A stretch of DNA of 10,757 nucleotides from a virus (lineage: Duplodnaviria > Heunggongvirae > Uroviricota > Caudoviricetes). Both the position numbers and the translations under genes were made by a program. The stretch lies in IMG/VR virus record IMGVR_UViG_2778261515_000020, positions 1 through 10,757 of that record. One strand, given 5' to 3'. Below, one piece after another: positions 1 to 10,757 of the stretch; position 1 is the first letter of the stretch; each line of letters begins with the position of its first letter. A model generated the notes under the pieces. That model did not search any database. It was not told where the DNA came from and saw only the letters and a list, made by a program, of their open reading frames with translations.

Positions 1-588
1 TTCAGGCCAGATGACATCCGGCGCGGTGCTGGTATCTGTTGCCGTCACCGCGTCAGTGTAATCCAGCACGGCGTTAAGTCGGGTTGTTTCTGCCTGCGTC
101 AGTTTCCGTCCGGCCTGCAATTTCAGTTGAATCAGACTGATGGAAGCCATAGCAGCATCAATCAGTGACTGGCGCTGTGCTTCTGCCGCTTCGACTACGG
201 CGCTATGCTGTGCCTCAGTATCGGTCACCCATTTCTCACCATCCCATTTATCGTATGGAGATAAAGGGGCGATAGTGGTTGTATTTTCAGGGTAATCACC
301 CGGAGCTGTGATTTCTTTTGATTCTCCTGTTTCTGTGCTATAGACGATTTCACCGCGATGGTCTGGCACATATTCCCATGAATTTAAATTCACAGAACGA
401 CAGATTGCATAACCAACCTTATGTATGCCAGGTGCATCAAGACAGGAACATGCTGGAATACCGACCCCCACAGCAAGATATTCAGTTGATGTGGAAATAT
501 ATTCCCGTGTTTCACTATCATAGTTATAGACGGTAATATTCCCCGCCTTCGTGGCAATAAACTCGCTATTTAATACAGCATTATCCAT
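1..588 (-). CDS. Phage tail fiber assembly protein (Tfa/gpG-like), partial; C-terminus lies beyond the window start
   Basis: Hand translation of the minus strand from the ATG at 588-586 gives MDNAVLNSEFIATKAGNITVYNYDSETREYISTSTEYLAVGVGIPACSCLDAPG...APDVIWPE with no stop through position 1 (196 codons). The N-terminal motif and the DVIWPE-type C-terminal region are typical of enterobacterial Tfa proteins. The start overlaps the stop of the upstream cassette (TAATG). This ORF is absent from the supplied track because it is truncated. Confidence 0.8.
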   Translation of the reverse strand, partial: MDNAVLNSEFIATKAGNITVYNYDSETREYISTSTEYLAVGVGIPACSCLDAPGIHKVGYAICRSVNLNSWEYVPDHRGEIVYSTETGESKEITAPGDYPENTTTIAPLSPYDKWDGEKWVTDTEAQHSAVVEAAEAQRQSLIDAAMASISLIQLKLQAGRKLTQAETTRLNAVLDYTDAVTATDTSTAPDVIWPE

Positions 589-1034
589 TATGCAGCCCTC
601 ACGATATAGTTAAATGCAACATTTCGTGGGCGGGTTTCGTTACCGCCAGGGAGCTGAAAAGCGTTGATAATCCCACCGCTTGCCTGACTTATTCCATCCG
701 TGTACAACCCGCCACCGGCACTGTCGCTGAGTGCAAATGTTTTTGATGGTGAACTGTTTGAAGCTGGTCCCCAGTATTTTAATGCGAGCTTTCTGACTTC
801 ATCACTCTGAATACTCAATAAAGCACGCCCTGTATCAATGCTGCGCCCATCATCCCAGCCACGAATAAACTCACCGCGGAGATCAGGTAGTTTCCCTGAT
901 GGATATGCTGTAGCAAGACGGGGATATTTAACCTTATCAAAGGCAGCGCCATTGCATTTCAGCCAGCCTGTTGGCGGCGTAGCTGAAGGCCACGGAACAG
1001 GGACACCAACAGGTAATGCAGAGCCTTCTCCCAA
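588..1034 (-). CDS. Tail fiber C-terminal variable cassette B (tail-collar-like domain); promoterless 3' gene segment
   Basis: The ORF translation contains LPVGVPVPWPSATPPTGWLKCNGAAF...LPDLRGEFIRGWDDGR, which matches the phage tail collar domain pattern as I recall it. The first codon in the track is TTG, not ATG, and there is no RBS, so this is a cassette rather than a free-standing gene. It ends ...NYIVRAA with its stop overlapping the tfa start. Confidence 0.6.
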   Translation of the reverse strand: MGEGSALPVGVPVPWPSATPPTGWLKCNGAAFDKVKYPRLATAYPSGKLPDLRGEFIRGWDDGRSIDTGRALLSIQSDEVRKLALKYWGPASNSSPSKTFALSDSAGGGLYTDGISQASGGIINAFQLPGGNETRPRNVAFNYIVRAA

Positions 1035-1047
1035 ACCAACGTTTTTA
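807..1047. repeat. Direct repeat copy 1 (about 241 bp, roughly 85% identical by eye to 1294..1534); 5' conserved part of cassette B
   Basis: Visual alignment of the plus strand: ctgaatactcaataaa...ccaaaccaacgttttta is shared by both copies, with identity breaking sharply after gttttta. Confidence 0.75.
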
Positions 1048-1051
1048 TGCA
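1026..1051 (-). other. Candidate invertase crossover site (hix/gix/pix-like) at the 5' end of cassette B
   Basis: The minus strand reads TGCATAAAAACG-TT-GGTTTGGGAGAA, resembling the AAAACC-NN-GGTTT core of Hin/Gin-family sites as I remember them. It sits exactly at the homology breakpoint between cassettes A and B. Confidence 0.4.
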
Positions 1052-1563
1052 GCTCTCACAATAAAGTTGAATGCAATATTGCGCGGTCGTGTTTCGCTCC
1101 CGCCTGTGTTACCAATACTCCCTCGTGTATGTAGCGTTGGTGATGGAATCAGGGTTCCGCCTGCACTGGTACCATCCAGTCCCTTGCCCTGTGTATATGC
1201 TCTTCTGAAGATTGCCGCCAGTTCCCATACCTCTTTTGAGTCATACCCATCGTTGGCGACAACAGGATGACGGTGCTTTTCCAGCATTCCGGCCTGAATA
1301 CTCAATAAAACACGTCCAGCATCAATACCGCGCCCATCATCCCAGCCACGAATAAATTCACCGCGTAAATCAGGCAGTTTTCCTGACGGGTACGCTGTGG
1401 CTAGTTTGGGATACTTCAGCTTATCAAAGGCAGCACCATTGCATTTTAGCCAGCCCTCTGGAGGTGTGGCTGAAGGCCACGGAACTGTTACACCAACAGG
1501 CAACGCAGAACCTTCCCCCAAACCAACGTTTTTAACTTCGAAAACAGAGCTATCTAATAGCAT
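1045..1563 (-). CDS. Tail fiber C-terminal variable cassette A (tail-collar-like domain); promoterless 3' gene segment next to the invertase
   Basis: The translation has the same tail-collar-like motif (LPVGVTVPWPSATPPEGWLKCNGAAF...LPDLRGEFIRGWDDGRG), then a divergent middle, then the same C-terminal tail as cassette B (ETRPRNIAFNFIVRAA). There is no RBS upstream of the ATG at 1563. Its position next to the invertase matches the silent S'v-type segment of Mu G / P1 C / e14 P systems. Confidence 0.6.
   Translation of the reverse strand: MLLDSSVFEVKNVGLGEGSALPVGVTVPWPSATPPEGWLKCNGAAFDKLKYPKLATAYPSGKLPDLRGEFIRGWDDGRGIDAGRVLLSIQAGMLEKHRHPVVANDGYDSKEVWELAAIFRRAYTQGKGLDGTSAGGTLIPSPTLHTRGSIGNTGGSETRPRNIAFNFIVRAA
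1294..1534. repeat. Direct repeat copy 2 (about 241 bp); 5' conserved part of cassette A
   Basis: Visual alignment with 807..1047. A second shorter shared block, about 75% identical by eye, lies at the cassette 3' ends (591..648 versus 1048..1105). Confidence 0.75.
1513..1538 (-). other. Candidate invertase crossover site (hix/gix/pix-like) at the 5' end of cassette A
   Basis: The minus strand reads AAGTTAAAAACG-TT-GGTTTGGGGGAA. The right half and centre are shared with the cassette B site and the left half differs, as with hixL versus hixR. It lies about 55 bp upstream of the invertase start. Confidence 0.4.
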
Positions 1564-1591
1564 TTTTACTAACAGAAACAGGATGCTTTTT

Positions 1592-2191
1592 ATGCAAATT
1601 GGCTATATTCGCGTATCAACAAATGACCAGAACACGGATTTGCAACGCAATGCGCTCAATAGCGCAGGATGTGAACTGATTTTTGAAGATAAAATCAGCG
1701 GAACAAAATCAGCCAGACCGGGATTGAAAAAACTGCTCAGAACGTTATCAGCGGGGGATACGCTCGTTGTCTGGAAACTGGACAGGCTGGGCAGAAGCAT
1801 GAAACACCTGATCACACTGATTGAGGAATTGCGGAAAAAAGGTGTCAATTTTCGTAGTCTGACGGATTCAATTGATACCAGTACCCCAATGGGACGATTT
1901 TTCTTCCACGTGATGGGCGCCCTGGCTGAAATGGAACGTGAATTAATTGTAGAGCGTACACTGGCCGGACTGGCAGCAGCCCGCGCACAGGGGCGAATTG
2001 GTGGGCGTCGCCCGAAACTGACAAAAGAGCAACATGAGCAAATAGCGAGGCTGATTAAAAACGGCCACGACAGAAAACAGCTGGCCATAATTTACGACAT
2101 CGGTATATCGACGATTTATCGTTATCACCCTGTAGGTGACACGCAACCCGGAGGAATAATTGAGAATACTCAGGAAACAAAAAACCGCTAA
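1592..2191 (+). CDS. Serine-recombinase DNA invertase, Hin/Gin/Cin/Pin family
   Basis: MQIGYIRVSTNDQNTDLQRNAL...DTLVVWKLDRLGRSMKHL...SLTDSIDTSTPMGRFFFHVMGALAEMERELIVERTLAGLAAARAQGRIGGRRPKLT closely resembles the Hin and Pin sequences as I recall them, including the catalytic Ser in IRVST and a C-terminal HTH. The start was chosen at the ATG at 1592 (AGGA 8 nt upstream). The track ORF from 1397 is an upstream artefact. Confidence 0.9.
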   Translation: MQIGYIRVSTNDQNTDLQRNALNSAGCELIFEDKISGTKSARPGLKKLLRTLSAGDTLVVWKLDRLGRSMKHLITLIEELRKKGVNFRSLTDSIDTSTPMGRFFFHVMGALAEMERELIVERTLAGLAAARAQGRIGGRRPKLTKEQHEQIARLIKNGHDRKQLAIIYDIGISTIYRYHPVGDTQPGGIIENTQETKNR

Positions 2192-2211
2192 TCTGAACAT
2201 TAGCGGTTTTT
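2181..2211. terminator. Bidirectional intrinsic terminator between the convergent invertase and U genes
   Basis: Perfect 12-bp stem AAAACCGCTAAT / ATTAGCGGTTTT around a 6-nt loop (CTGAAC), with A-tract on one side and T-tract on the other. The stem overlaps the invertase stop codon (2189-2191) and lies 9 nt from the U stop. Confidence 0.6.
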
Positions 2212-2219
2212 ACGTTAAA

Positions 2220-2708
2220 TCAGAACACCCCTTTAACTGAGCTGACCACATTGTTAAGGGATGATGTCACCTTATCTTTAAGACCGGACAGCATATCACT
2301 GAACGATGAGGATTGCAGGCGCTCCCGCAAATCCTCATCACAGCGTTCAAGGGTCAGGGAAAACTCTATCTTTTTCGCTTTCCCGTAGCGATCCAGTTCA
2401 GAGCGGGTCGTGCTCGTTTCAGTCAGAACATACATGCCGTAAATCTGCCCGACGCCATCAATCAGAGGCCACGGGCGTCCCGCATACGCCTGCGTGGCCA
2501 GCAGCGACAGCGACACTTCGCCGCCTGTAATCTCAGGATAAAGCACGCCGGAAAGAACGATGCGATCATCACCTGCACCGATATACTGCCAGCTTGCTGA
2601 ACGGTTAACGCGCTCGTTTTTCACATGTCGCCAGCTTTTGTTTTGCTGTAACTGCTGATGCGGTAATGTGCGCAACTCAAAAACAAACATGCCGTAGATC
2701 ATCATCAT
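2220..2708 (-). CDS. U: P2 gpU-like tail protein
   Basis: 162 aa beginning MMMIYGMFVFELRTLPHQQLQ...WPLIDGVGQIYGMYV, resembling P2 gpU as I recall it. AAGGAG lies 7 nt upstream of the ATG and overlaps the T stop. It sits immediately downstream of T, as in P2. Confidence 0.85.
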   Translation of the reverse strand: MMMIYGMFVFELRTLPHQQLQQNKSWRHVKNERVNRSASWQYIGAGDDRIVLSGVLYPEITGGEVSLSLLATQAYAGRPWPLIDGVGQIYGMYVLTETSTTRSELDRYGKAKKIEFSLTLERCDEDLRERLQSSSFSDMLSGLKDKVTSSLNNVVSSVKGVF

Positions 2709-2719
2709 GGCACGACTCC

Positions 2720-5557
2720 TTACTCTTTATCATAAAAGCTACCACGCCCGGCACGGGTACGCCGCTCCAGTTCTGCCCTGACCATTTCGCCGACCAGTTT
2801 CGCCAGTTCGCGGGGATTCTGCGTAACAACGTTATGCAGATGGACATGAATTTCACCACCAAATTCGGGTGCCGCAGTCTCCCGGCTGCGGGAAGATGCG
2901 GAAACGGGCGCAACTGGCGCACGTGCGGCCTCCACGACCGGACGGGAGCTTGCTGCAACAACAGGGGGCAACACCGGAGATAACGGAGCCGGGACCACGG
3001 GTGTGATGTTGATTGCGGAAGCAGGCTTACTGACCTGCGCAATCTTCCGCTCCTGCCACTCCCCGCGAACAGCAAGCGCACGGGGCAGGTTCTTAAAGAC
3101 AATATCACCGGGGCCGATACGCTTTTTCGTCTCATCAACCAGCTTGCCTGTGTTATCTGCAATTTTGCTGAGCCTGCGCAGCGTGCCAGTGTTGTTGTCC
3201 GTGAGCGGCTTGTTGTCTTTAGGCTTATCGCCTCCGGTCCCTGTTTCCGCAGATTTCGGCGGATTGATTTTTGCCAGGTCCCCCTGAAGCAAAGCAACCT
3301 TGTCCTGAAGAATGGCCGCACGCTGCGCGTCTTCGATTTTCTTTCTCGCCCTTTCCGCTTCATCTGGAAGGACGCCAAGTTTTTCCAGTATCCATGCCAG
3401 CGTATCCAGCAGCATTTTTGCAGGCGTCAGGACAAGCTGTAACGCACCGCCAAGAACGTTGCCGAACACCTCGCCAGCACTGGTGCATTTATCCAGCGTT
3501 TCCTTACTGGATTCCATCGGTGACAGCAGCGATGTAAACCAGTTAAAGACCTGAATCACGCCATCACGAACTAGTTCGAAAACAGGGCCAAACCGTTCAA
3601 AGGTTTCGCGTAACGGGGCCAGCCGCTCCATAATCCCGCTGAACACCCCGGCAAAAAATGCCCTGATTGGGTCCCAGTATTTCCAGATGAGAGCGGCAGC
3701 TCCGGCAAGCGCAGCCACGATAAGACCGACCGGGCTGAACAACGCCCCGATAGCGCCTCCAAGTAAAGAGACGGAACCCGCCACCATTCCCCACAGCGCT
3801 GGCAGGACCCTGACAGCATTCATTGATCCGGTCAGGAGGGAAAAACCAAGACGCAGTTTTGCCAGCGGGCCAGCAAGCACCCCAAGAGCCAGTGACAACG
3901 AGCCAACCGTTGCAGTCATTGCCAGCAGCGCACCGCCTGCAATCAGTAGCTGGCGCGTCAGTGCCGGATGGGCCTGCGCCAGCTCCGTCACCTTTGAGAC
4001 CACCCGAGTGAGCCACTGCGTGACAGAGCGCAGCGGACCGTCAATCAGATCCGCAATGCGGATACGCAGCCCCTCCCATGCACTGCCGAGTGATCTCAGG
4101 TCGCCATCAAGGTTATTGGCCATAACCTTTGCCGTGCGTTCAGCCTCACCGCGTGCGCCTTCAAGTTCTTTTCTCAGCTTGGGCAGAGAACCGTCACCTG
4201 CCGCATCAACGAGGGCCATAAATGACGTGAAGGCCTCTTCTCCGGCTATGTCCTTAAAGAACGATACCCGGTCAACTTCCCCGTATTTGCGGGTGGCTTT
4301 ATAAAGGTCGGCCAGCACATCCTCCATCGGGCGCATTTTGCCGTTCGCATCAGAGACAGCCACACCAAGCTCTTTCAGCGCCTCTGCTGCCGCCTTTGGC
4401 GGTGATGCCAGACGAGCAAGGCTGGCACGCATTGCCGTCCCGGCATCACTCCCTCTGATACCCATATTCGCCAGCACGCCCGCCATCGCTGCGGCCTGCT
4501 CCAGCGATATTCCCAGCTTACCCGCCACCGGACCTGCATATTTCATGGTTTCGCCCAGCGCGCGAAGGTCGGTGTTAGTACGGGTAAACGCCGCAGTAAG
4601 TGTGTCGCCGACCCGGTCCATCTGGTCAGCAGAGAGACCGAACTGCGTCAGGATATTTGAGCCAATATCCGCCGTCTCGCCAAGGTCCATACCGCCAGCC
4701 GTTGCCATGCTCAGCACGCCGGGAAGCGCAGCCTGAATGGCTTCTGGTGTGAAGCCAGCCATAGCAAGAAATGCCTGCCCACTGGCGGCATCACTCGCAG
4801 TAAACTGCGTTTCAGAGCCGAGCTTTAGCGCCTGCTCACGCAGCGCCTTAAACTGCGGGCTGTTCTGGTCAATTCGCGTCAGCGCCTGCACACGGGACAT
4901 CTCTTTCCCGAATCCGATAGCGGGCTGCAAAAAACGCCCGGCAGCATAGCCGCCAGCCGCTGCCGCACCAGTTGCCAGCGCACCACCCGTTTTCAGTTTT
5001 CCCGCTGTTTCCTGCGCGCGTGAATACTGCTCACGCGCCCGCGTTACACGCGCAAGCGCCTGTCGTTCGCGTTCAAGCTGGTTGTTGTACTGTTCGGTGC
5101 GTCTGATGGCCTGCTGGATGGTGTTATCGCTGCCTGTCAGGGAAATACCGTGGCGTTTAAGCTCTCCGCCAAGCTCCCGCATTTTCTGAATTTCCCGCGT
5201 GCGCGATTCATTCAGGCGTTCAAGCCGGGTGCTTAACTGCTGCATCAGCCTTTGTTGTTTTTCGCTGAGCACAGTACCCGTGCGTTGTAACTGATGAAGG
5301 GCGTTAAGCTGGCGTCGTGCTTTCACGATGCCAGCATCCGCTTTACTGACAGCATCGCGGGCGCGCTCAAATGAACGCGCCTGACGCTCGAGATTTTTGA
5401 TTGCCCCCTGCGTTTGCTGGATGGAGTCACCAAGCCGCCCCATCAGGCGGCGGGCGTTTTCGGCTGGCCGGGTCAGCCTGTCAACAGCACTGAAGGCGAC
5501 CCGAATGTCAAGAGTCTTCATTGTCTGCATTCCCACTGCGAAGTGCCGCCCGCTCAC
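2720..5557 (-). CDS. T: Tail tape measure protein (P2 gpT-like)
   Basis: ORF of about 945 aa with coiled-coil-like Q/R/E/A-rich N-terminal half, a central hydrophobic glycine/alanine-rich segment, and a position between E/E' and U. The start is uncertain: the longest ORF begins with GTG at 5557, and in-frame ATGs at 5530 and 5521 are alternatives. Confidence 0.8.
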   Translation of the reverse strand: MSGRHFAVGMQTMKTLDIRVAFSAVDRLTRPAENARRLMGRLGDSIQQTQGAIKNLERQARSFERARDAVSKADAGIVKARRQLNALHQLQRTGTVLSEKQQRLMQQLSTRLERLNESRTREIQKMRELGGELKRHGISLTGSDNTIQQAIRRTEQYNNQLERERQALARVTRAREQYSRAQETAGKLKTGGALATGAAAAGGYAAGRFLQPAIGFGKEMSRVQALTRIDQNSPQFKALREQALKLGSETQFTASDAASGQAFLAMAGFTPEAIQAALPGVLSMATAGGMDLGETADIGSNILTQFGLSADQMDRVGDTLTAAFTRTNTDLRALGETMKYAGPVAGKLGISLEQAAAMAGVLANMGIRGSDAGTAMRASLARLASPPKAAAEALKELGVAVSDANGKMRPMEDVLADLYKATRKYGEVDRVSFFKDIAGEEAFTSFMALVDAAGDGSLPKLRKELEGARGEAERTAKVMANNLDGDLRSLGSAWEGLRIRIADLIDGPLRSVTQWLTRVVSKVTELAQAHPALTRQLLIAGGALLAMTATVGSLSLALGVLAGPLAKLRLGFSLLTGSMNAVRVLPALWGMVAGSVSLLGGAIGALFSPVGLIVAALAGAAALIWKYWDPIRAFFAGVFSGIMERLAPLRETFERFGPVFELVRDGVIQVFNWFTSLLSPMESSKETLDKCTSAGEVFGNVLGGALQLVLTPAKMLLDTLAWILEKLGVLPDEAERARKKIEDAQRAAILQDKVALLQGDLAKINPPKSAETGTGGDKPKDNKPLTDNNTGTLRRLSKIADNTGKLVDETKKRIGPGDIVFKNLPRALAVRGEWQERKIAQVSKPASAINITPVVPAPLSPVLPPVVAASSRPVVEAARAPVAPVSASSRSRETAAPEFGGEIHVHLHNVVTQNPRELAKLVGEMVRAELERRTRAGRGSFYDKE

Positions 5558-6040
5558 GCCAGCTAACCACTTCGCCGGGCGTCATCATGAAGATTTCGGC
5601 GGGCGACCAGTTAAAAATAACGGCAATATCTGCCACAAAGTCTTCTATGTGCTCAAAGCACACAACCGTGATCAGGCTTCCGTCGCCTGTTCGTTCTTCC
5701 CGCCAGAGTCCGCACCGCTCAAAAAATTTACGGCAACCACACATAACTGAATAAAGTCACGGGATGCCATTTTTTTGATCGTCACTTCATCCAGTCGCGG
5801 TGATGTCACGCGTGACAACAGCGTAAACATGGATTCCGCTTTCAGACTCAGCACATCAGACAGCGACAGACCACGCAGGGATCCAGCCTGCTCAATAGCC
5901 CCGGTGATCTCCACATACGTGATTTTTTCGTCGCCTCGCTCAATTGGCTGGGTAAGTTTTACGCCGCGCTCGCTGGTTTCTTTCGCAGTATCAGCAACCA
6001 CCACAGCGTTTTCAGTATCGGTATTTTTCGTCTCTTTCAT
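5508..6040 (-). CDS. Tail assembly chaperone E+E' fusion made by programmed -1 ribosomal frameshift
   Basis: Slippery heptamer T TTT TTG in the zero frame of E (minus strand, 5720..5726, codons Asn-Phe-Leu 105-107). The -1 frame continues ...FFERCGLWREERTGDGSLITVVCFEHIEDF...NADNEDS to a stop at 5508, matching the track ORF 5508..5744 and overlapping the T start. This is the same arrangement as P2 E/E' and lambda G/GT. Confidence 0.7.
5672..6040 (-). CDS. E: Tail assembly chaperone gpE-like (zero-frame product)
   Basis: 122-aa ORF between FII and T. GAAAGGAG lies 8 nt upstream of the ATG at 6040. It contains the frameshift heptamer near its 3' end. Confidence 0.8.
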   Translation of the reverse strand: MKETKNTDTENAVVVADTAKETSERGVKLTQPIERGDEKITYVEITGAIEQAGSLRGLSLSDVLSLKAESMFTLLSRVTSPRLDEVTIKKMASRDFIQLCVVAVNFLSGADSGGKNEQATEA

Positions 6041-6094
6041 CAGAAAACTCCTTTCAGTCAGAGGCGACGCACTGCGCCGCCTGCATATTACTTA

Positions 6095-6607
6095 TCAGCC
6101 GAGCCCGAGCGCGGAGCGGATGCGGTCGGGTACAATGTCCTTGCCATCCTTCCGGTAGATGTGGTTCACCAGGTCAATTTCCCACACCGGACGATCGTTA
6201 ATACTCAGCTTGTAGTAGGTGTTTTTGACAGCGTAAGTGTGTGACGTGGCTTCGCCCTGTTTGGCCTCCCCCATATCAATTTCCGTCACACGCCCGCGCA
6301 TCTCGATTTCATACAGGTCGCTTTCTGCATCGGTGTAGTATTCACCCGCAAAACGCAGCAGCGTGCCGTCCATTGTTCCGCCATATTTAAGGAACAGCGC
6401 ACGAACGGCGCCACCCATGACAAAACTCGCATCAAGCGCGGAATCGTCCAGGCCGAGGTCGATACTCACCGCTCCCAGCATGCCACCACCACGATAGCTG
6501 TCGGTTTTACGCGTCAGTTTAGGCGGGGTGACAGACGTCACCTTACCCACTTCATTTTCACCATCCACAAACAGCGTAAAAAAACGAAGATGTTTTGGTA
6601 CGGCCAT
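6095..6607 (-). CDS. FII: Tail tube protein (P2 FII-like)
   Basis: 170 aa at the right size and position for P2 FII. Its start overlaps the FI stop (TAATG). Confidence 0.88.
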   Translation of the reverse strand: MAVPKHLRFFTLFVDGENEVGKVTSVTPPKLTRKTDSYRGGGMLGAVSIDLGLDDSALDASFVMGGAVRALFLKYGGTMDGTLLRFAGEYYTDAESDLYEIEMRGRVTEIDMGEAKQGEATSHTYAVKNTYYKLSINDRPVWEIDLVNHIYRKDGKDIVPDRIRSALGLG

Positions 6608-7791
6608 TAAGCACCTCCAAGCACTGCAAATGCAGGACCAAAGAACTCATCAGTGAACGCCTGGTAAAGCTCCATATCTTCCAGCGGAGGAACGGGCGTA
6701 TATTTATAGCGAATACGCACGCGCCCCTGTCGTAATTCTGTGGTGCTGTTATCCACGATGTCATACCAGCACGATGCGCCAATCAGTTTCCCGGCAGTAA
6801 CCAGCGAATCCAGTTTTGCCCTGATGGCACTGATAACATCCTTCACGTTCGCGGGCGTCAGTGGACTGTCGATGGTTTCAAACTGCGCTTCCGCAATTGA
6901 ATCAGCCAGCACCTGTGCGGTTCGGGTATACACCTCAAAGATGTAGGCATTCGTTTCCGGTGTGCGGTTGCCCCAGAAGCGGAACCCGTTGCGGCGAATG
7001 ATGGTTGTGATTTCTTTGTTGTTGAGGCTGTTGGCATCGCTGTCAGCAGCCTGCAACGACCAGAACACATGCCTGGACATCCCCAGCACATTTTTGACCG
7101 GAACGTTGGACAGCGATTTGTGCCAGCCCTGCTCATGGTCAATGTACGCACGAAGGCCGCACGCATAGGCTGGCGCGGGGAAAACCTCATTCTCGCCACT
7201 TTTCGGGTTGTAAGCGATGAAGTCCGGCCACAGGAGCATCAGCTCGCGTTCGTTGAATTTTTCACGGTATGCAATGGCTTCAGCCATCGTGTTACAGCCA
7301 TGACAGGAGGCATACACAAACGCGCGCAGTTTACCTGCAATCACGCACAGGGATTTTGTCACCGCCTCCGTGTCCAGCCCCGGCGCGGCCAGAATACGCG
7401 GACGGTATCCGATGCTTTCATCCTGCTCTGCAACAAGCAGCGCATACATCCCCGTATAGCTGCCGTCGGATTCAGAACCACCAATAACCAGTTGATCCTG
7501 TGTTTTTCCGTCTTCTTCTTTGTGTTCAGCCACGCGAACGACGATCACCTTTGTGCTCACCTGGTCTGCAATGGGTTTCAGCGCACGGTACAGCGTCCCC
7601 GTTGTCCCGCATTTTCCCAGCACGTCATTGACGCGGGTCACTAATGCAGGCTTGTTCAGCGGGAACAGCTTCGCGTCCGCATCGTCCGCCGTTGCCACGA
7701 TACCGATAACGCTGGAATCAACGTCGTTAATTGCTGTTACCAGGTCGGTACTTTCCGTAACGCGGGCGCCATGAAAACGAGTTTCACTCAT
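6607..7791 (-). CDS. FI: Contractile tail sheath protein (P2 FI-like)
   Basis: 394 aa with motifs I recall from P2 FI (LSNV.V...FW.LQ..., TLIRR.GFRFWGNRT, YTRTAQV.AD, YTPVPPLE). AAGGGG RBS upstream of the ATG at 7791. Confidence 0.9.
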   Translation of the reverse strand: MSETRFHGARVTESTDLVTAINDVDSSVIGIVATADDADAKLFPLNKPALVTRVNDVLGKCGTTGTLYRALKPIADQVSTKVIVVRVAEHKEEDGKTQDQLVIGGSESDGSYTGMYALLVAEQDESIGYRPRILAAPGLDTEAVTKSLCVIAGKLRAFVYASCHGCNTMAEAIAYREKFNERELMLLWPDFIAYNPKSGENEVFPAPAYACGLRAYIDHEQGWHKSLSNVPVKNVLGMSRHVFWSLQAADSDANSLNNKEITTIIRRNGFRFWGNRTPETNAYIFEVYTRTAQVLADSIAEAQFETIDSPLTPANVKDVISAIRAKLDSLVTAGKLIGASCWYDIVDNSTTELRQGRVRIRYKYTPVPPLEDMELYQAFTDEFFGPAFAVLGGA

Positions 7792-7948
7792 AGCTTCAGC
7801 CCCTTGTATCCGTTAAATGATTCGGCAACAATCATCACCCACCACGCGCGTAATCTCACCCCTGCGACGTTCTCCCGCCACGGCGACAACAAAAAGCAGT
7901 AACCCCCTCCGCACGCACATGCGACCATGCCGCACAGGGAGGGAACAG

Positions 7949-9049
7949 ATGACCGACACCACCATGCAATTGCTCAGTCAGGGCACAGACCCCGTGAAAA
8001 TGCCGGATTTTGATATTCTCGCGGAGGGTAAAACGCTGTCAGGCGTGGCAGAGCGCCTGATGAGCCTGTCACTGACCGACAACCGGGGATTTGAGGCGGA
8101 CCAGCTCACCATCACGCTGGATGATGCAGATGGTCAGTTGCAGCTACCGCCACGGGGCGCGCGCCTGACGGTTCTCATTGGCTGGAAAGGAGAACCGCTG
8201 ACAGAAAAAGGCACTTACATTGTTGATGAAATCGCTCACGAAGGACCGCCGGACAGGCTGACTGTTTCAGCCAGAAGCGCAGATTTTCGGGATGAATTTA
8301 ACGTTAAACGTGAGGTGTCCTGGCATGATGTGACCGTTGAGCGTGTGGTATCCGCCATCGCTCATCGGTACGGTCTGAAACCGCAAATCAGCGAAATGCT
8401 GATGGATATCGAAATCGACCACGCCGACCAGACCGAAGAAAGCGACATGTCCTTTCTTACGCGCATGGCGGAAATGCTGGGCGCAATCACCACGGTAAAA
8501 AGCGGTAATCTGTTATTCATTATGCCAGGCGGTGGCGTGAACGCACAGGGCCAGCCGTTGCCATCGTTCGCCATCACGCGCAGCAGTGGCGATCGCCATC
8601 AGTTCCGCATTGCTGACCGCGAAGCGTATACGGGGGTACGCGCTTACTGGCTTGATCTTAATTACGGGAAAAAGAAAAAAGTCAGCGTGAAACGCCGTAA
8701 ACCGAAAATGGAGAAAAGCAGTAGCCGTGAAGGCGACTATATGGAAGGTGCGGAAGGCAACGTGTTTGTGTTACGCAAGACTTATCAGAACGAACAGGCA
8801 GCAAGACGCGCTGCGGCGGCAAAGTGGCAGCAGCTACAACGCGGAGCCGCATCATTCTCCATCACACTGGCACGTGGACGCGCAGAACTCTACCCCGAAA
8901 TGCATGGCACGGTAACAGGATTTAAAAGCGAGATTGATAATCAGGACTGGATTATTGCAAAAGCCGAGCACACCATTGATAACAGCGGCTTTACCACGCA
9001 GCTTGAGCTTGAGGCAAAAATCCCGGAATGGATAGCGGAAACAGAGTGA
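7949..9049 (+). CDS. D: Late control / tail protein gpD-like
   Basis: Long ORF with a lysine-rich patch (GKKKKVSVKRRKPK) and overall gpD-like character. The start was chosen at the ATG at 7949 (GGGAGGG 5 nt upstream), not the alternative-start extension to 7817 in the track. Confidence 0.85.
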   Translation: MTDTTMQLLSQGTDPVKMPDFDILAEGKTLSGVAERLMSLSLTDNRGFEADQLTITLDDADGQLQLPPRGARLTVLIGWKGEPLTEKGTYIVDEIAHEGPPDRLTVSARSADFRDEFNVKREVSWHDVTVERVVSAIAHRYGLKPQISEMLMDIEIDHADQTEESDMSFLTRMAEMLGAITTVKSGNLLFIMPGGGVNAQGQPLPSFAITRSSGDRHQFRIADREAYTGVRAYWLDLNYGKKKKVSVKRRKPKMEKSSSREGDYMEGAEGNVFVLRKTYQNEQAARRAAAAKWQQLQRGAASFSITLARGRAELYPEMHGTVTGFKSEIDNQDWIIAKAEHTIDNSGFTTQLELEAKIPEWIAETE

Positions 9050-9091
9050 GCAACTTAGAATAGCGGCAGCACCACGTTAAGGGAGGTCGCT

Positions 9092-9352
9092 ATGTTCCGT
9101 TGTCCGCTTTGTGGCGCATCTGCCCGTATCCGCACCAGTCGTCCAGAAAATGATTCAAACACCGTGCGGCAAAAGTATTACCAGTGTAACAATCTGGAAT
9201 GCGGCGTATGCTTCTCAACACTGGAAGCTTTCCATAAATTCACATCAAAACACGCCTCCGGCGTTCACTCTTCAGAAGGTATCCCGTGGCATGATCTGCC
9301 AGCTTCACACAGGGGAAACAATCAGATGAGTTTGCCTTTACCTCAGAATTAA
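9092..9352 (+). CDS. ogr: Ogr/Delta-family zinc-finger late transcription activator
   Basis: MFRCPLCGASARIRTSR...YYQCNNLECGVCF is a Cys4 arrangement (C-x2-C ... C-x4-C) with clear N-terminal similarity to P2 Ogr as I recall it (MFHCPLC...ARTSR...YHQCQNVNC). Strong GGGAGG RBS. Located directly after D, as in P2. Confidence 0.85.
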   Translation: MFRCPLCGASARIRTSRPENDSNTVRQKYYQCNNLECGVCFSTLEAFHKFTSKHASGVHSSEGIPWHDLPASHRGNNQMSLPLPQN

Positions 9353-9750
9353 CAGACAGAATTGCCGGAGTAACAAAAAAAGCGATACACCCATTTACCC
9401 GGCAGTACCACTCCCCCGCCCCATAGCTGGCAGTGAGGCGGGATGTTTTGCCTACCCGCCAGCAGGCACCATCGTGGAAATATCCAACATTGAAGGACGC
9501 CCGGATAAGCCTGTTATCAGGCAAATCTTACCCATCGGTCATAACCTGCCTGATGTAAAGCCCGGCGAACAATTGCAACAACAGCGTGCAGAAGTGTTTC
9601 AGCATGTCACGACTGACGGAAGCTGGCGCAGAAAAACCGACCAGCAAATCCAAGAAGAAAAGCGCGTAAAACGATCACTGCTGATGTGGCGTTGCTTTAT
9701 ACAAGCTGCTATTTGCGATATGCTGAACACATCAACCTGTGGAGTGCATT

Positions 9751-10377
9751 ATGAAACAAAAATCAAAGTCTGCTGCCATTGCTGCTATTGCTACAGCTCT
9801 GACAGCATCACTGGCTCCGGTGCCAGCTAAAAGCACGATACTACCAACAACAGTTATTGAATCCGTGACACACGCCAGAGTGGTTTCAATGCTTACATTT
9901 GAGCATCATGATGGTCAGGTGTTTCTGCCTCTTGAAGAAGCTATTGAATATATCAACGGGCTGAATGACAACATGCGTGCCGCGCTCAATGCAGTCATTG
10001 AAGAACGACAGAACAGAGGCAAGGGAGCTCTGTTTGCTGACAAAACCGCAAAAATCATAAAAATATGCGAAGAGTCACTTAAGCAGCACAGCCGTGTTAA
10101 AGAGGCTGTCAAAATTGTAATGGATCCGGATAACCTGGCAAAAATGTATCCGGATAGCATGGAGCAAAGAATCGCCTATCGCAATAAACTGGTTCGTTTT
10201 GGTCGGGCAATTGCGCAGGGAGAGTTTATCGCTCGTGATGCCATCAACGCCATCAAACGAAGCACCGCACCAGACAAAACGACCAGCCTAGGCAATACGC
10301 TGTCTGACGGAAATGTGAAAGCAATGATTATTGCCGAGCATAAAAACATGGGACTCCCGGCACCGGAGTTTTCCTGA
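9751..10377 (+). CDS. Hypothetical protein (208 aa) with a hydrophobic N-terminal segment; first gene of a two-gene cargo operon and candidate partner of the downstream YafO-like protein
   Basis: Start chosen at the ATG at 9751 (GGAG 6 nt upstream); the track begins at an upstream GTG. The N-terminus MKQKSKSAAIAAIATALTASLAPVPA looks like a signal peptide or membrane anchor. I recognise no family. Its stop overlaps the next start (TGATG). Codon usage looks AT-richer than the tail genes. Confidence 0.6.
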   Translation: MKQKSKSAAIAAIATALTASLAPVPAKSTILPTTVIESVTHARVVSMLTFEHHDGQVFLPLEEAIEYINGLNDNMRAALNAVIEERQNRGKGALFADKTAKIIKICEESLKQHSRVKEAVKIVMDPDNLAKMYPDSMEQRIAYRNKLVRFGRAIAQGEFIARDAINAIKRSTAPDKTTSLGNTLSDGNVKAMIIAEHKNMGLPAPEFS

Positions 10378-10757
10378 TGGCAAGCAAAGTAAGCATTCAT
10401 AAAGATGTTGAATACCAGGACATTGCAAAAGTTTACGGAAAGGCTCTGGAAAACTGGTTAAATACCGGTGTTCTCCCTGACAGATTCGGCAATGAAGGGC
10501 AGTGGGAAGATAACGCAAGATTATGTGGTTCGTTTGTATATAAATTACACATAAGACTACCGTCAGAACCACCATGGAAGAAAAGCAAAGCCCAAATAGA
10601 CAGAACTTCAAATATCTATCTGGTTTATACAAGGCACTGGATGGATTATGACAATATACAAATCATCAGCATCATGGCCCCAGATGCTCACGAAAAAGCC
10701 AAAACTTCTTTCATGGCTGAGCTGGAAAGACGGGCAGAAGAATTCCAGAACTCATAA
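10377..10757 (+). CDS. YafO-family toxin-like protein (putative ribosome-dependent mRNA interferase)
   Basis: 126 aa. It shares with E. coli YafO, as I recall its sequence, the motifs GVLPDRFG (YafO GVLPDIFG), HIRL (HIHL), DRTSNIYLVYTRH (RTNDEAHLVYCQG), IISIMAPDAHEKA (LIAILKPEPHKLA) and MAELER (MAEAFR). The assignment is from memory, not from a database search. Confidence 0.5.
   Translation: MASKVSIHKDVEYQDIAKVYGKALENWLNTGVLPDRFGNEGQWEDNARLCGSFVYKLHIRLPSEPPWKKSKAQIDRTSNIYLVYTRHWMDYDNIQIISIMAPDAHEKAKTSFMAELERRAEEFQNS

Follow-up and report, generated by a model that had tools for sequence, protein, structure and literature searches.

This locus raises the question of whether two closely similar sequences of 26 base pairs (bp), lying at the edges of two tail-fiber gene cassettes and near a gene for a serine DNA invertase, are the points at which that enzyme exchanges strands and, if so, with which partner they recombine. 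The window, by which we mean the whole stretch of DNA that was analyzed (10,757 nucleotides (nt), positions 1 to 10,757 of IMG/VR virus record IMGVR_UViG_2778261515_000020), represents the tail region of a P2-like Escherichia coli (E. coli) prophage. The two sequences are here called site A, located between the cassettes, and site B, located next to the invertase gene (see the table below for all coordinates). Very likely, they are the crossover sites of a three-site DNA-inversion switch of the Min/Pin type, which changes the receptor-binding tip of the tail fiber. The evidence that carries this answer comprises the anatomy of the sites, their match to the family, the combinatorial junctions found in natural isomers, a partner site just outside the window and an intact invertase.

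Site anatomy and family membership

Both sites are built of two 12-bp halves around an identical AA core (12 + 2 + 12 bp). They share the 22-mer TTCYCCCAAACCAACGTTTTTA, of which the window holds exactly two copies, both on the plus strand, and which was found in none of 200 dinucleotide shuffles; on the minus strand, both carry TAAAAACGTTGGTTTGGG. The first-pass annotation of this DNA had stated that the two cassettes share a minus-strand sequence and that their homology ends sharply just upstream of it, and this was confirmed. Between the cassettes, identity is 85% along 241 nt (807-1047 vs. 1294-1534, a spacing of 487), and in a pairwise alignment the similarity stops abruptly just upstream (on the minus strand) of TAAAAACG, which is preceded by GAGAGCTGCA in one copy and by TTCGAAGT in the other. 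This places the homology boundary within each 26-bp site, 4 nt from its outer edge.

The two halves of a site differ in character. The inner half, TTCYCCCAAACC, faces the cassette and, when read on the minus strand, encodes G-L-G-E, the first cassette residues. In site A, this conserved half spans 1026-1037, at the start of cassette B, while cassette A ends with its TAA stop (1045-1047) within the divergent outer half (1040-1051). In site B, the outer half is non-coding and is located 53 bp upstream of the invertase ATG. In the coding orientation, the outer halves read TGCATAAAAACG at the end of cassette A and AAGTTAAAAACG at the invertase-proximal position. Both contain TAAAAACG and lack the outer TTnTC of the family half-site, for which the consensus is TTTTCATAAACC.

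For comparison with defined sites, the gix (Mu), pix (e14) and Fels-2 sites were recovered from sequences by the same scan as was applied to the window, while the hix, cix, mix and bix sites were taken from PMC3241671 Table 3. When the whole window was scanned with a generic Hin-family half-site score (TTNTCNNAAACC on both arms), sites A and B ranked first and second (scores of 14 and 13), with the next best position reaching 11. The specificity of this score is moderate, as mononucleotide shuffles yield 0.3 positions of at least 13 per window. Against the 26-bp Din consensus, site A fits 14 and site B 12 of the 15 specified positions. Site A is identical at 23/26 positions to p15B mixMr''N' and mixN''O', at 21/26 to pixR and at 18/26 to hixL, and site B at 23/26 to p15B mixMI''L' and mixN''O'; for the e14 pixR site, the identity of the window sites is 20-21/26. 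The alignment to hix, gix, cix and pix sites, which the first-pass annotation had proposed as a check and which was extended here to mix sites, therefore yields a family match. Its observation that a conserved half-site is paired with a divergent one holds as well, the inner half of the window sites fitting the consensus fully or almost so and the outer half poorly, and the published mix and pixR sites show the same pairing.

Members of the Din family require an identical central dinucleotide in all partner sites, and the asymmetry of this dinucleotide sets site polarity. In this family, the invertase cuts with a 2-nt 3' stagger, forming a phosphoserine link. Sites A and B read AA on the plus strand, and the partner site in gene H, described below, reads TT on the same strand, such that the two window sites are in direct orientation with respect to each other and inverted with respect to their partner.

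Some related prophages (L023, L020, L053 and L052 in IMG/VR) carry, at the invertase-proximal position, a site with the outer half of the H-gene site, giving a more symmetric site pair; these H-type sites were scored as Hc/B or Hc/C on the opposite strand (Hc denotes the H-gene half-site). In other related prophages among the IMG/VR contigs, the outer halves are pixR-like (TTTTCATAAACG or TTTTCTTAAACG).

A gene for a small serine recombinase adjoins the sites. Its product has the catalytic serine and a C-terminal helix-turn-helix (HTH), with Resolvase (PF00239) and HTH_7 (PF02796) domains, and the open reading frame (ORF) is intact and full length. The protein matches the solved Mu Gin structures 4m6f/3uj3 (E=1e-88, residues 1-181), and conserves the motifs RVSTNDQ (catalytic) and WKLDRLGRS. 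Its identity by tblastn is 72.6% with Mu Gin, 74.6% with P1 Cin and 77.3% with the Fels-2 invertase. According to McLean 2013, helix B basic residues and residues Q151, R154 and L155 of Hin are uniquely conserved in those invertases that depend on Fis and an enhancer. Equivalents of Hin K47/R48/K51 and of the Fis-contacting Q151/R154/L155 are present here (KKLLR; Q..RL). Moreover, the 5' part of the gene contains two 15-mers of the form G-N13-C, namely GTATCAACAAATGAC (1613-1627) and GCGCAGGATGTGAAC (1662-1676), of which the first equals the corresponding codons of Mu gin and the second agrees with them at 14/15 positions; they lie ~95 and ~144 bp from the center of site B. Together, they form a candidate recombinational enhancer of the kind that the family carries in cis, bound by Fis, in the 5' part of the invertase gene. 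A shufflon of the Rci/R64 type was also considered and rejected, since the recombinase here is a serine resolvase/invertase acting at 26-bp sites of the Din type; Rci/R64-type shufflons rely on a tyrosine recombinase (Rci) and 19-bp sfx repeats. The word 'shufflon' fits the window system only loosely.

The partner site and junctions in natural isomers

The first-pass annotation had placed an inverted partner for each site outside the window. No contig other than NLPZ01000048.1 (L010) has the exact cassette-A protein, and as this one stops at window base 1, the partner site was read from near-identical contigs (L042, L002 and L006). Of these, L042 overlaps window positions 1-1293 at 99.92% identity and continues leftwards through the remainder of the chaperone gene, a convergent chaperone gene encoding 147 amino acids (aa) and a 465-aa H gene that ends in a further cassette, C. 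The H gene carries the predicted inverted site, with TT at its core as against AA in sites A and B, and its center lies 1818 bp from that of site A and 2305 bp from that of site B. As the L042 H gene ends in cassette C, the state represented by the window is that in which H is fused to C, with A and B being silent. The H/C junction was found in 38 viral contigs. With regard to contig ends, L042, an IMG/VR contig, begins inside cassette A (its base 1 corresponds to window position 1293), while NLPZ01000048.1 ends at window base 1. Two independent assemblies thus break inside the invertible segment, as expected of a population of mixed orientation or of internal repeats.

Natural isomers, defined as loci with the identical invertase protein and ~99.9% DNA identity to the window, show where exchange has occurred. 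In L002 and L009, window positions 1-1042 are inverted and 1025-2300 direct, with the break falling inside site A. In L006, positions 1-1529 are inverted and 1512-2300 direct (99.9% identity), with the break falling inside site B. The same inversion, exactly at site B, is seen in L007, L016 and L017, of which the latter two are the complete genomes of ETEC1749 and rl0044, matching window positions 1-1526 at 99.9% and presenting the gene order of L006. The strand-exchange points that had been proposed for the two 26-bp sites are thus borne out, as recombinant junctions of near-identical isomers map inside both.

These junctions can be described as combinations of three left halves and three cassette modules. 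In the coding orientation, the left halves are TTCTCGCATACC (H gene), TGCATAAAAACG (end of cassette A) and AAGTTAAAAACG (invertase-proximal), while the modules begin with GGTTTGGGGGAA ggttctgcg... for cassette A, GGTTTGGGAGAA ggctctgc... for cassette B and GGTTTGGGAGAA gcggcaaaac... for cassette C. Six combinations were counted in the window, L002, L004, L006 and L042, and the junctions named among the combinations are H/A, H/B, H/C, Aend/B, Aend/C, inv/A and inv/C. Cassette A differs at one base (G for A), and this base moves with the cassette in every case, while each left half stays in place; exchange is therefore confined to TT+GGTTTGGG, a 10-bp interval that includes the core dinucleotide (in site A, window positions 1030-1039). 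The junctions are resolved to this interval, which is coarser than the exact phosphodiester bond. Cassette C has no similarity to A or B beyond the site, and, of the left flanks, those at the end of cassette A and next to the invertase have at most the 8-nt TAAAAACG in common, while the H flank shares nothing. Homologous recombination is thus an implausible source of these junctions.

Each of the three possible fusions of H forms a single ORF, of 509 aa with cassette A (L006 type), 499 aa with cassette B (L002 type) and 465 aa with cassette C. As in the multi-site Min systems, there are more than two sites, one of them in the constant part of the gene and the others at the heads of alternative C-terminal cassettes. 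Of the four isomers predicted from three sites, three were observed (the window/L042, L002 and L006 types).

Taken together, these data suggest the following course of events. The invertase would bind each 26-bp site as a dimer, and one of the two window sites would then pair with the single inverted site in gene H, ~0.8 kb to the left of the window. All four strands would presumably be cut at the central AA/TT dinucleotide, rotated and religated, probably with the help of Fis and the candidate enhancer. Exchange with site A would invert ~1.8 kb and fuse H to cassette B, while exchange with site B would invert ~2.3 kb and fuse H to cassette A, such that the switch would swap three alternative tail-fiber tips (A, B and C).

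In several of the near-identical prophages, an insertion sequence (IS) element with HTH_Tnp_1 and rve transposase genes is found in the gpS/gpV region (L002 2729-3942, L004 3216-4429 and L008 3213-4427). These copies are therefore probably defective as phages, with their inversion modules being intact.

Cassette A polymorphism and alternative explanations

Several points weigh against a working three-site switch and should be considered. The outer halves of both sites fit the family half-site poorly (5/9 consensus positions), and site B lacks the consensus terminal GAA. The fourth predicted isomer (H/A, Aend/C, inv/B) was not found, as no viral contig matched the inv/B junction exactly. Dependence on Fis and an enhancer, with the putative Fis sites, is inferred from the invertase residues and from the likeness to Mu gin. 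Finally, the isomers come from assemblies of different strains rather than from one clone, and activity of the switch in the source strain is therefore inferred.

The degenerate outer halves and the origin of the isomers in different strains, together with the IS insertions and truncated D genes in related prophages, would also suit genuine Din sites that are now fossils, belonging to a switch that no longer operates, for example because of these outer halves or a defective prophage, with the isomers recording past events. We nonetheless regard this as improbable. The invertase is encoded by a full-length ORF and retains the residues for catalysis and for contact with Fis, and outer halves that are equally degenerate are found in functional p15B mix sites and in the experimentally active sites of enteropathogenic E. 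coli (EPEC). The DNA flanking the isomers differs by only ~0.1%, so the inversion events are recent, and the end of the source contig inside the invertible segment is as expected for a mixed population.

An origin through RecA-type homologous recombination between the 241-nt, 85%-identical cassette heads, with the 26-bp motifs being no more than the edge of a duplicated coding segment, is the least credible of the explanations considered. A long imperfect repeat indeed exists, and the motif encodes the conserved fiber residues G-L-G-E. However, cassette C and the constant part of H, which take part in the exchanges, share only ~12-14 nt with A and B, i.e., the half-site and the core. Breakpoints always fall in the same 10 bp and no hybrid cassettes were seen; furthermore, at both sites the motif continues for 8 nt (TAAAAACG) beyond the coding region on its upstream side, and it matches defined invertase sites.

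A different question is whether sites A and B also recombine with each other. As the two are directly oriented, the first-pass annotation had expected no such exchange, which is the rule in the family. However, L004 and L008 (99.7-99.9% identity to the window) are missing a 487-bp unit made up of cassette A and one site (window positions 1043-1511), the limits of which coincide exactly with the two direct sites. The only invertase-proximal site that they have is a hybrid, as expected, of the cassette-C inner half and the site B outer half. Either a rare deletion between direct sites or an insertion in the reverse sense has therefore probably taken place in this lineage. Tentatively, and with rather less than even chances, one may suppose that the direct sites occasionally recombine, excising cassette A as a 487-bp circle with one site that would be lost or recaptured at any compatible site. 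Such events would explain the exact-unit difference among 99.9%-identical prophages and, if they occur, inversion switches of the Din type would also serve as a system of cassette gain and loss.

It is much harder to accept that the direct sites serve mainly for excision and capture of cassette A, in a resolvase- or integron-like exchange in place of inversion, and we consider this very improbable. The precise lack of the 487-bp unit in L004 and L008 on an otherwise near-identical background is what such a mechanism predicts, yet the recombinase is of the invertase type, with the features of enhancer dependence, inversion isomers are common at both sites, and the presence/absence polymorphism needs one event only. 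Inversion through the three sites therefore remains our preferred reading of the locus.

Gene neighborhood

The features of the window and of the partner site are summarized in Table 1.

Table 1. Features of the window and of the partner site; positions refer to the window unless stated otherwise.
Feature	Position	Strand	Details
Inverted partner site, inside tail-fiber gene H	L042 2061-2086 (approximately window -792 to -767)		Plus-strand reading TTCTCGCATACC TT GGTTTGGGAGAA
Tail-fiber assembly chaperone gene	1-588	minus	PF02413, E=2.8e-31; 200 aa when complete
Silent tail-fiber C-terminal cassette B	588-1037	minus	Collar domain, PF07484, E=8.6e-15; 148 aa
Crossover site A	1026-1051	plus	TTCTCCCAAACC AA CGTTTTTATGCA; junction of cassette A end and cassette B start
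Central AA/TT dinucleotide, site A	1038-1039		Putative 2-nt staggered-cut position; core role from PMC3241671 Table 3
Silent tail-fiber C-terminal cassette A	1045-1524	minus	Collar domain, PF07484, E=1e-14; 172-aa ORF
Crossover site B	1513-1538	plus	TTCCCCCAAACC AA CGTTTTTAACTT; invertase-proximal, at cassette A start
Central AA/TT dinucleotide, site B	1525-1526		12-2-12 layout
Serine DNA invertase, Din family	1592-2191	plus	199 aa; catalytic motif RVSTNDQ (Ser9)
Candidate Fis-dependent recombinational enhancer (putative)	1613-1676		Two G-N13-C 15-mers in 5' part of invertase gene
Stem-loop terminator	2180-2211		Between convergent invertase and gpU genes
gpU, tape measure (T), gpE, tube (FII), sheath (FI)	2220-7791	minus
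gpD, Ogr	7817-9352	plus

The start of the chaperone gene overlaps the cassette B stop, and its last 4 codons are lost at the window and contig end. The mechanical ORF of cassette A extends to an ATG at 1563, past the cassette limit. No chaperone gene belongs to cassette A itself; in the L006 type, in which this cassette is fused to H, one has to go ~450 nt downstream, past the then silent cassette B, to reach a chaperone gene. As the two cassettes are alike in their heads (85%) and tails (82%, last 60 nt), with differing middles, A and B may share the single 200-aa chaperone.

The exact invertase protein is found in 988 blocks of a public assembly collection, and the 8 loci listed with it are all P2-like prophages with the same layout as the window. 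A sigma-70 promoter scan of positions 900-2300 gave no match, and the position of the invertase promoter was thus not found. Scanning of the FI-D intergenic region for the P2 late-promoter motif TGT-N12-ACA was uninformative, with two matches elsewhere in the window being at chance level.

Compared with the canonical P2 order, the whole FI-FII-E-T-U tail block is inverted, such that the invertase gene abuts the gpU end and FI diverges from D. All related E. coli loci share this layout, that of EPEC E2348/69 among them. Fels-2 carries FI, FII, E and T after the invertase gene and on its strand, and in Peduovirus magyaro the order goes on with U, D and ogr. The invertase as the cause of the inverted block was rejected as unsupported, as no Din-like site is found at either edge (best scores of 9-10 vs. 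13-14 for real sites). Downstream of ogr (9739-10757), at the prophage end that lies beside serS in related loci, there is an ORF of 208-212 aa with no Pfam match and a second, overlapping ORF, the equivalent of which in L002 (18160-19166) matches YafO_toxin. Judging from these ORFs, this region may carry toxin-antitoxin or defense cargo.

Relation to known systems

The system is of an already known kind and is an ordinary member of it. Din-family sites, multi-site switches of the Min type and three-site architecture in P2-like E. coli prophages have all been documented. What is added are exact coordinates for the sites, cores, cassettes and off-window partner of a host-range switch of a working type. 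These are useful for annotation, and the switch accounts for the breaking of assemblies at this locus, with the source contig ending inside the invertible segment. Only the presence/absence polymorphism of cassette A, bounded by direct sites, and the very degenerate outer half-sites, which apparently still support exchange, are mildly interesting.

The present switch is an allelic relative of the experimentally documented one of EPEC E2348/69. In the P2-like prophage of this strain, Goldberg et al. 2014 (PMC4272514) described three homologous inverted repeats and two overlapping inversions of ~2.2 and 1.8 kb, with four coexisting variants confirmed by polymerase chain reaction and three alternative C-termini. 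As in the window, H, the cassettes, tfa and the invertase are followed by gpU-T-E-FII-FI on the opposite strand and then by D and ogr; the invertases are identical at 187/199 residues (94%); and three Din-type sites, found at the published coordinates, occupy equivalent positions, with inversions of ~2.2/1.8 kb comparable to the 2305/1818 bp found here. The cassette alleles, however, are only 75-81% identical, the outer half-sites are AGCATGAAAACG and AAAACGAAAACG, and the EPEC segment has one chaperone gene where the window lineage has two.

The Pin system of the e14 P-segment of E. coli K-12, with its pixL and pixR sites, has the identical conserved half-site and core (TTCTCCCAAACC AA), with the first 19 nt of pixR being those of site A. 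It also has homologous cassettes of the stfE/tfaE type (91% identity over the aligned parts of window positions 1-2032, covering 78% of the query), with pinE adjacent. It differs in having two sites and two states, and in the outer half of pixR (TTTTCATAAACG), which is a good family half-site, whereas that of the window sites is not. The Gin/Mu, Cin/P1, Hin/Salmonella and Fels-2 systems share the recombinase family (73-77% to Gin, Cin and Fels-2 by tblastn), the 26-bp sites of 12-2-12 layout and an invertase gene beside one site, and in Gin, Cin and Fels-2, the crossover likewise lies where the constant part of a fiber gene meets its variable part. These systems, however, have only two sites, with both halves being well conserved, the core is GA/TC in gix and Fels-2, and Hin controls a promoter rather than a fiber gene.

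The Min system of p15B resembles the window in its organization, as several tail-fiber C-terminal cassettes are each headed by a 26-bp site with the conserved half TTCCCC(C/T)AAACC and an AA core, and the divergent half of a mix site likewise holds the end of the preceding cassette (CGTTTTTATGCC/TG). P1/p15B-like phage-plasmids are 81-84% identical in DNA to the inversion module of the window, and one of the EPEC E2348/69 sites is 26/26 identical to p15B mixQ''R'. While p15B Min has six sites and many more isomers on a P1-like plasmid, the window system, in a chromosomal prophage of the P2-like kind, has three sites with four predicted isomers. The EPEC switch, and with it its allelic relative in the window, is a small version of the p15B Min system.

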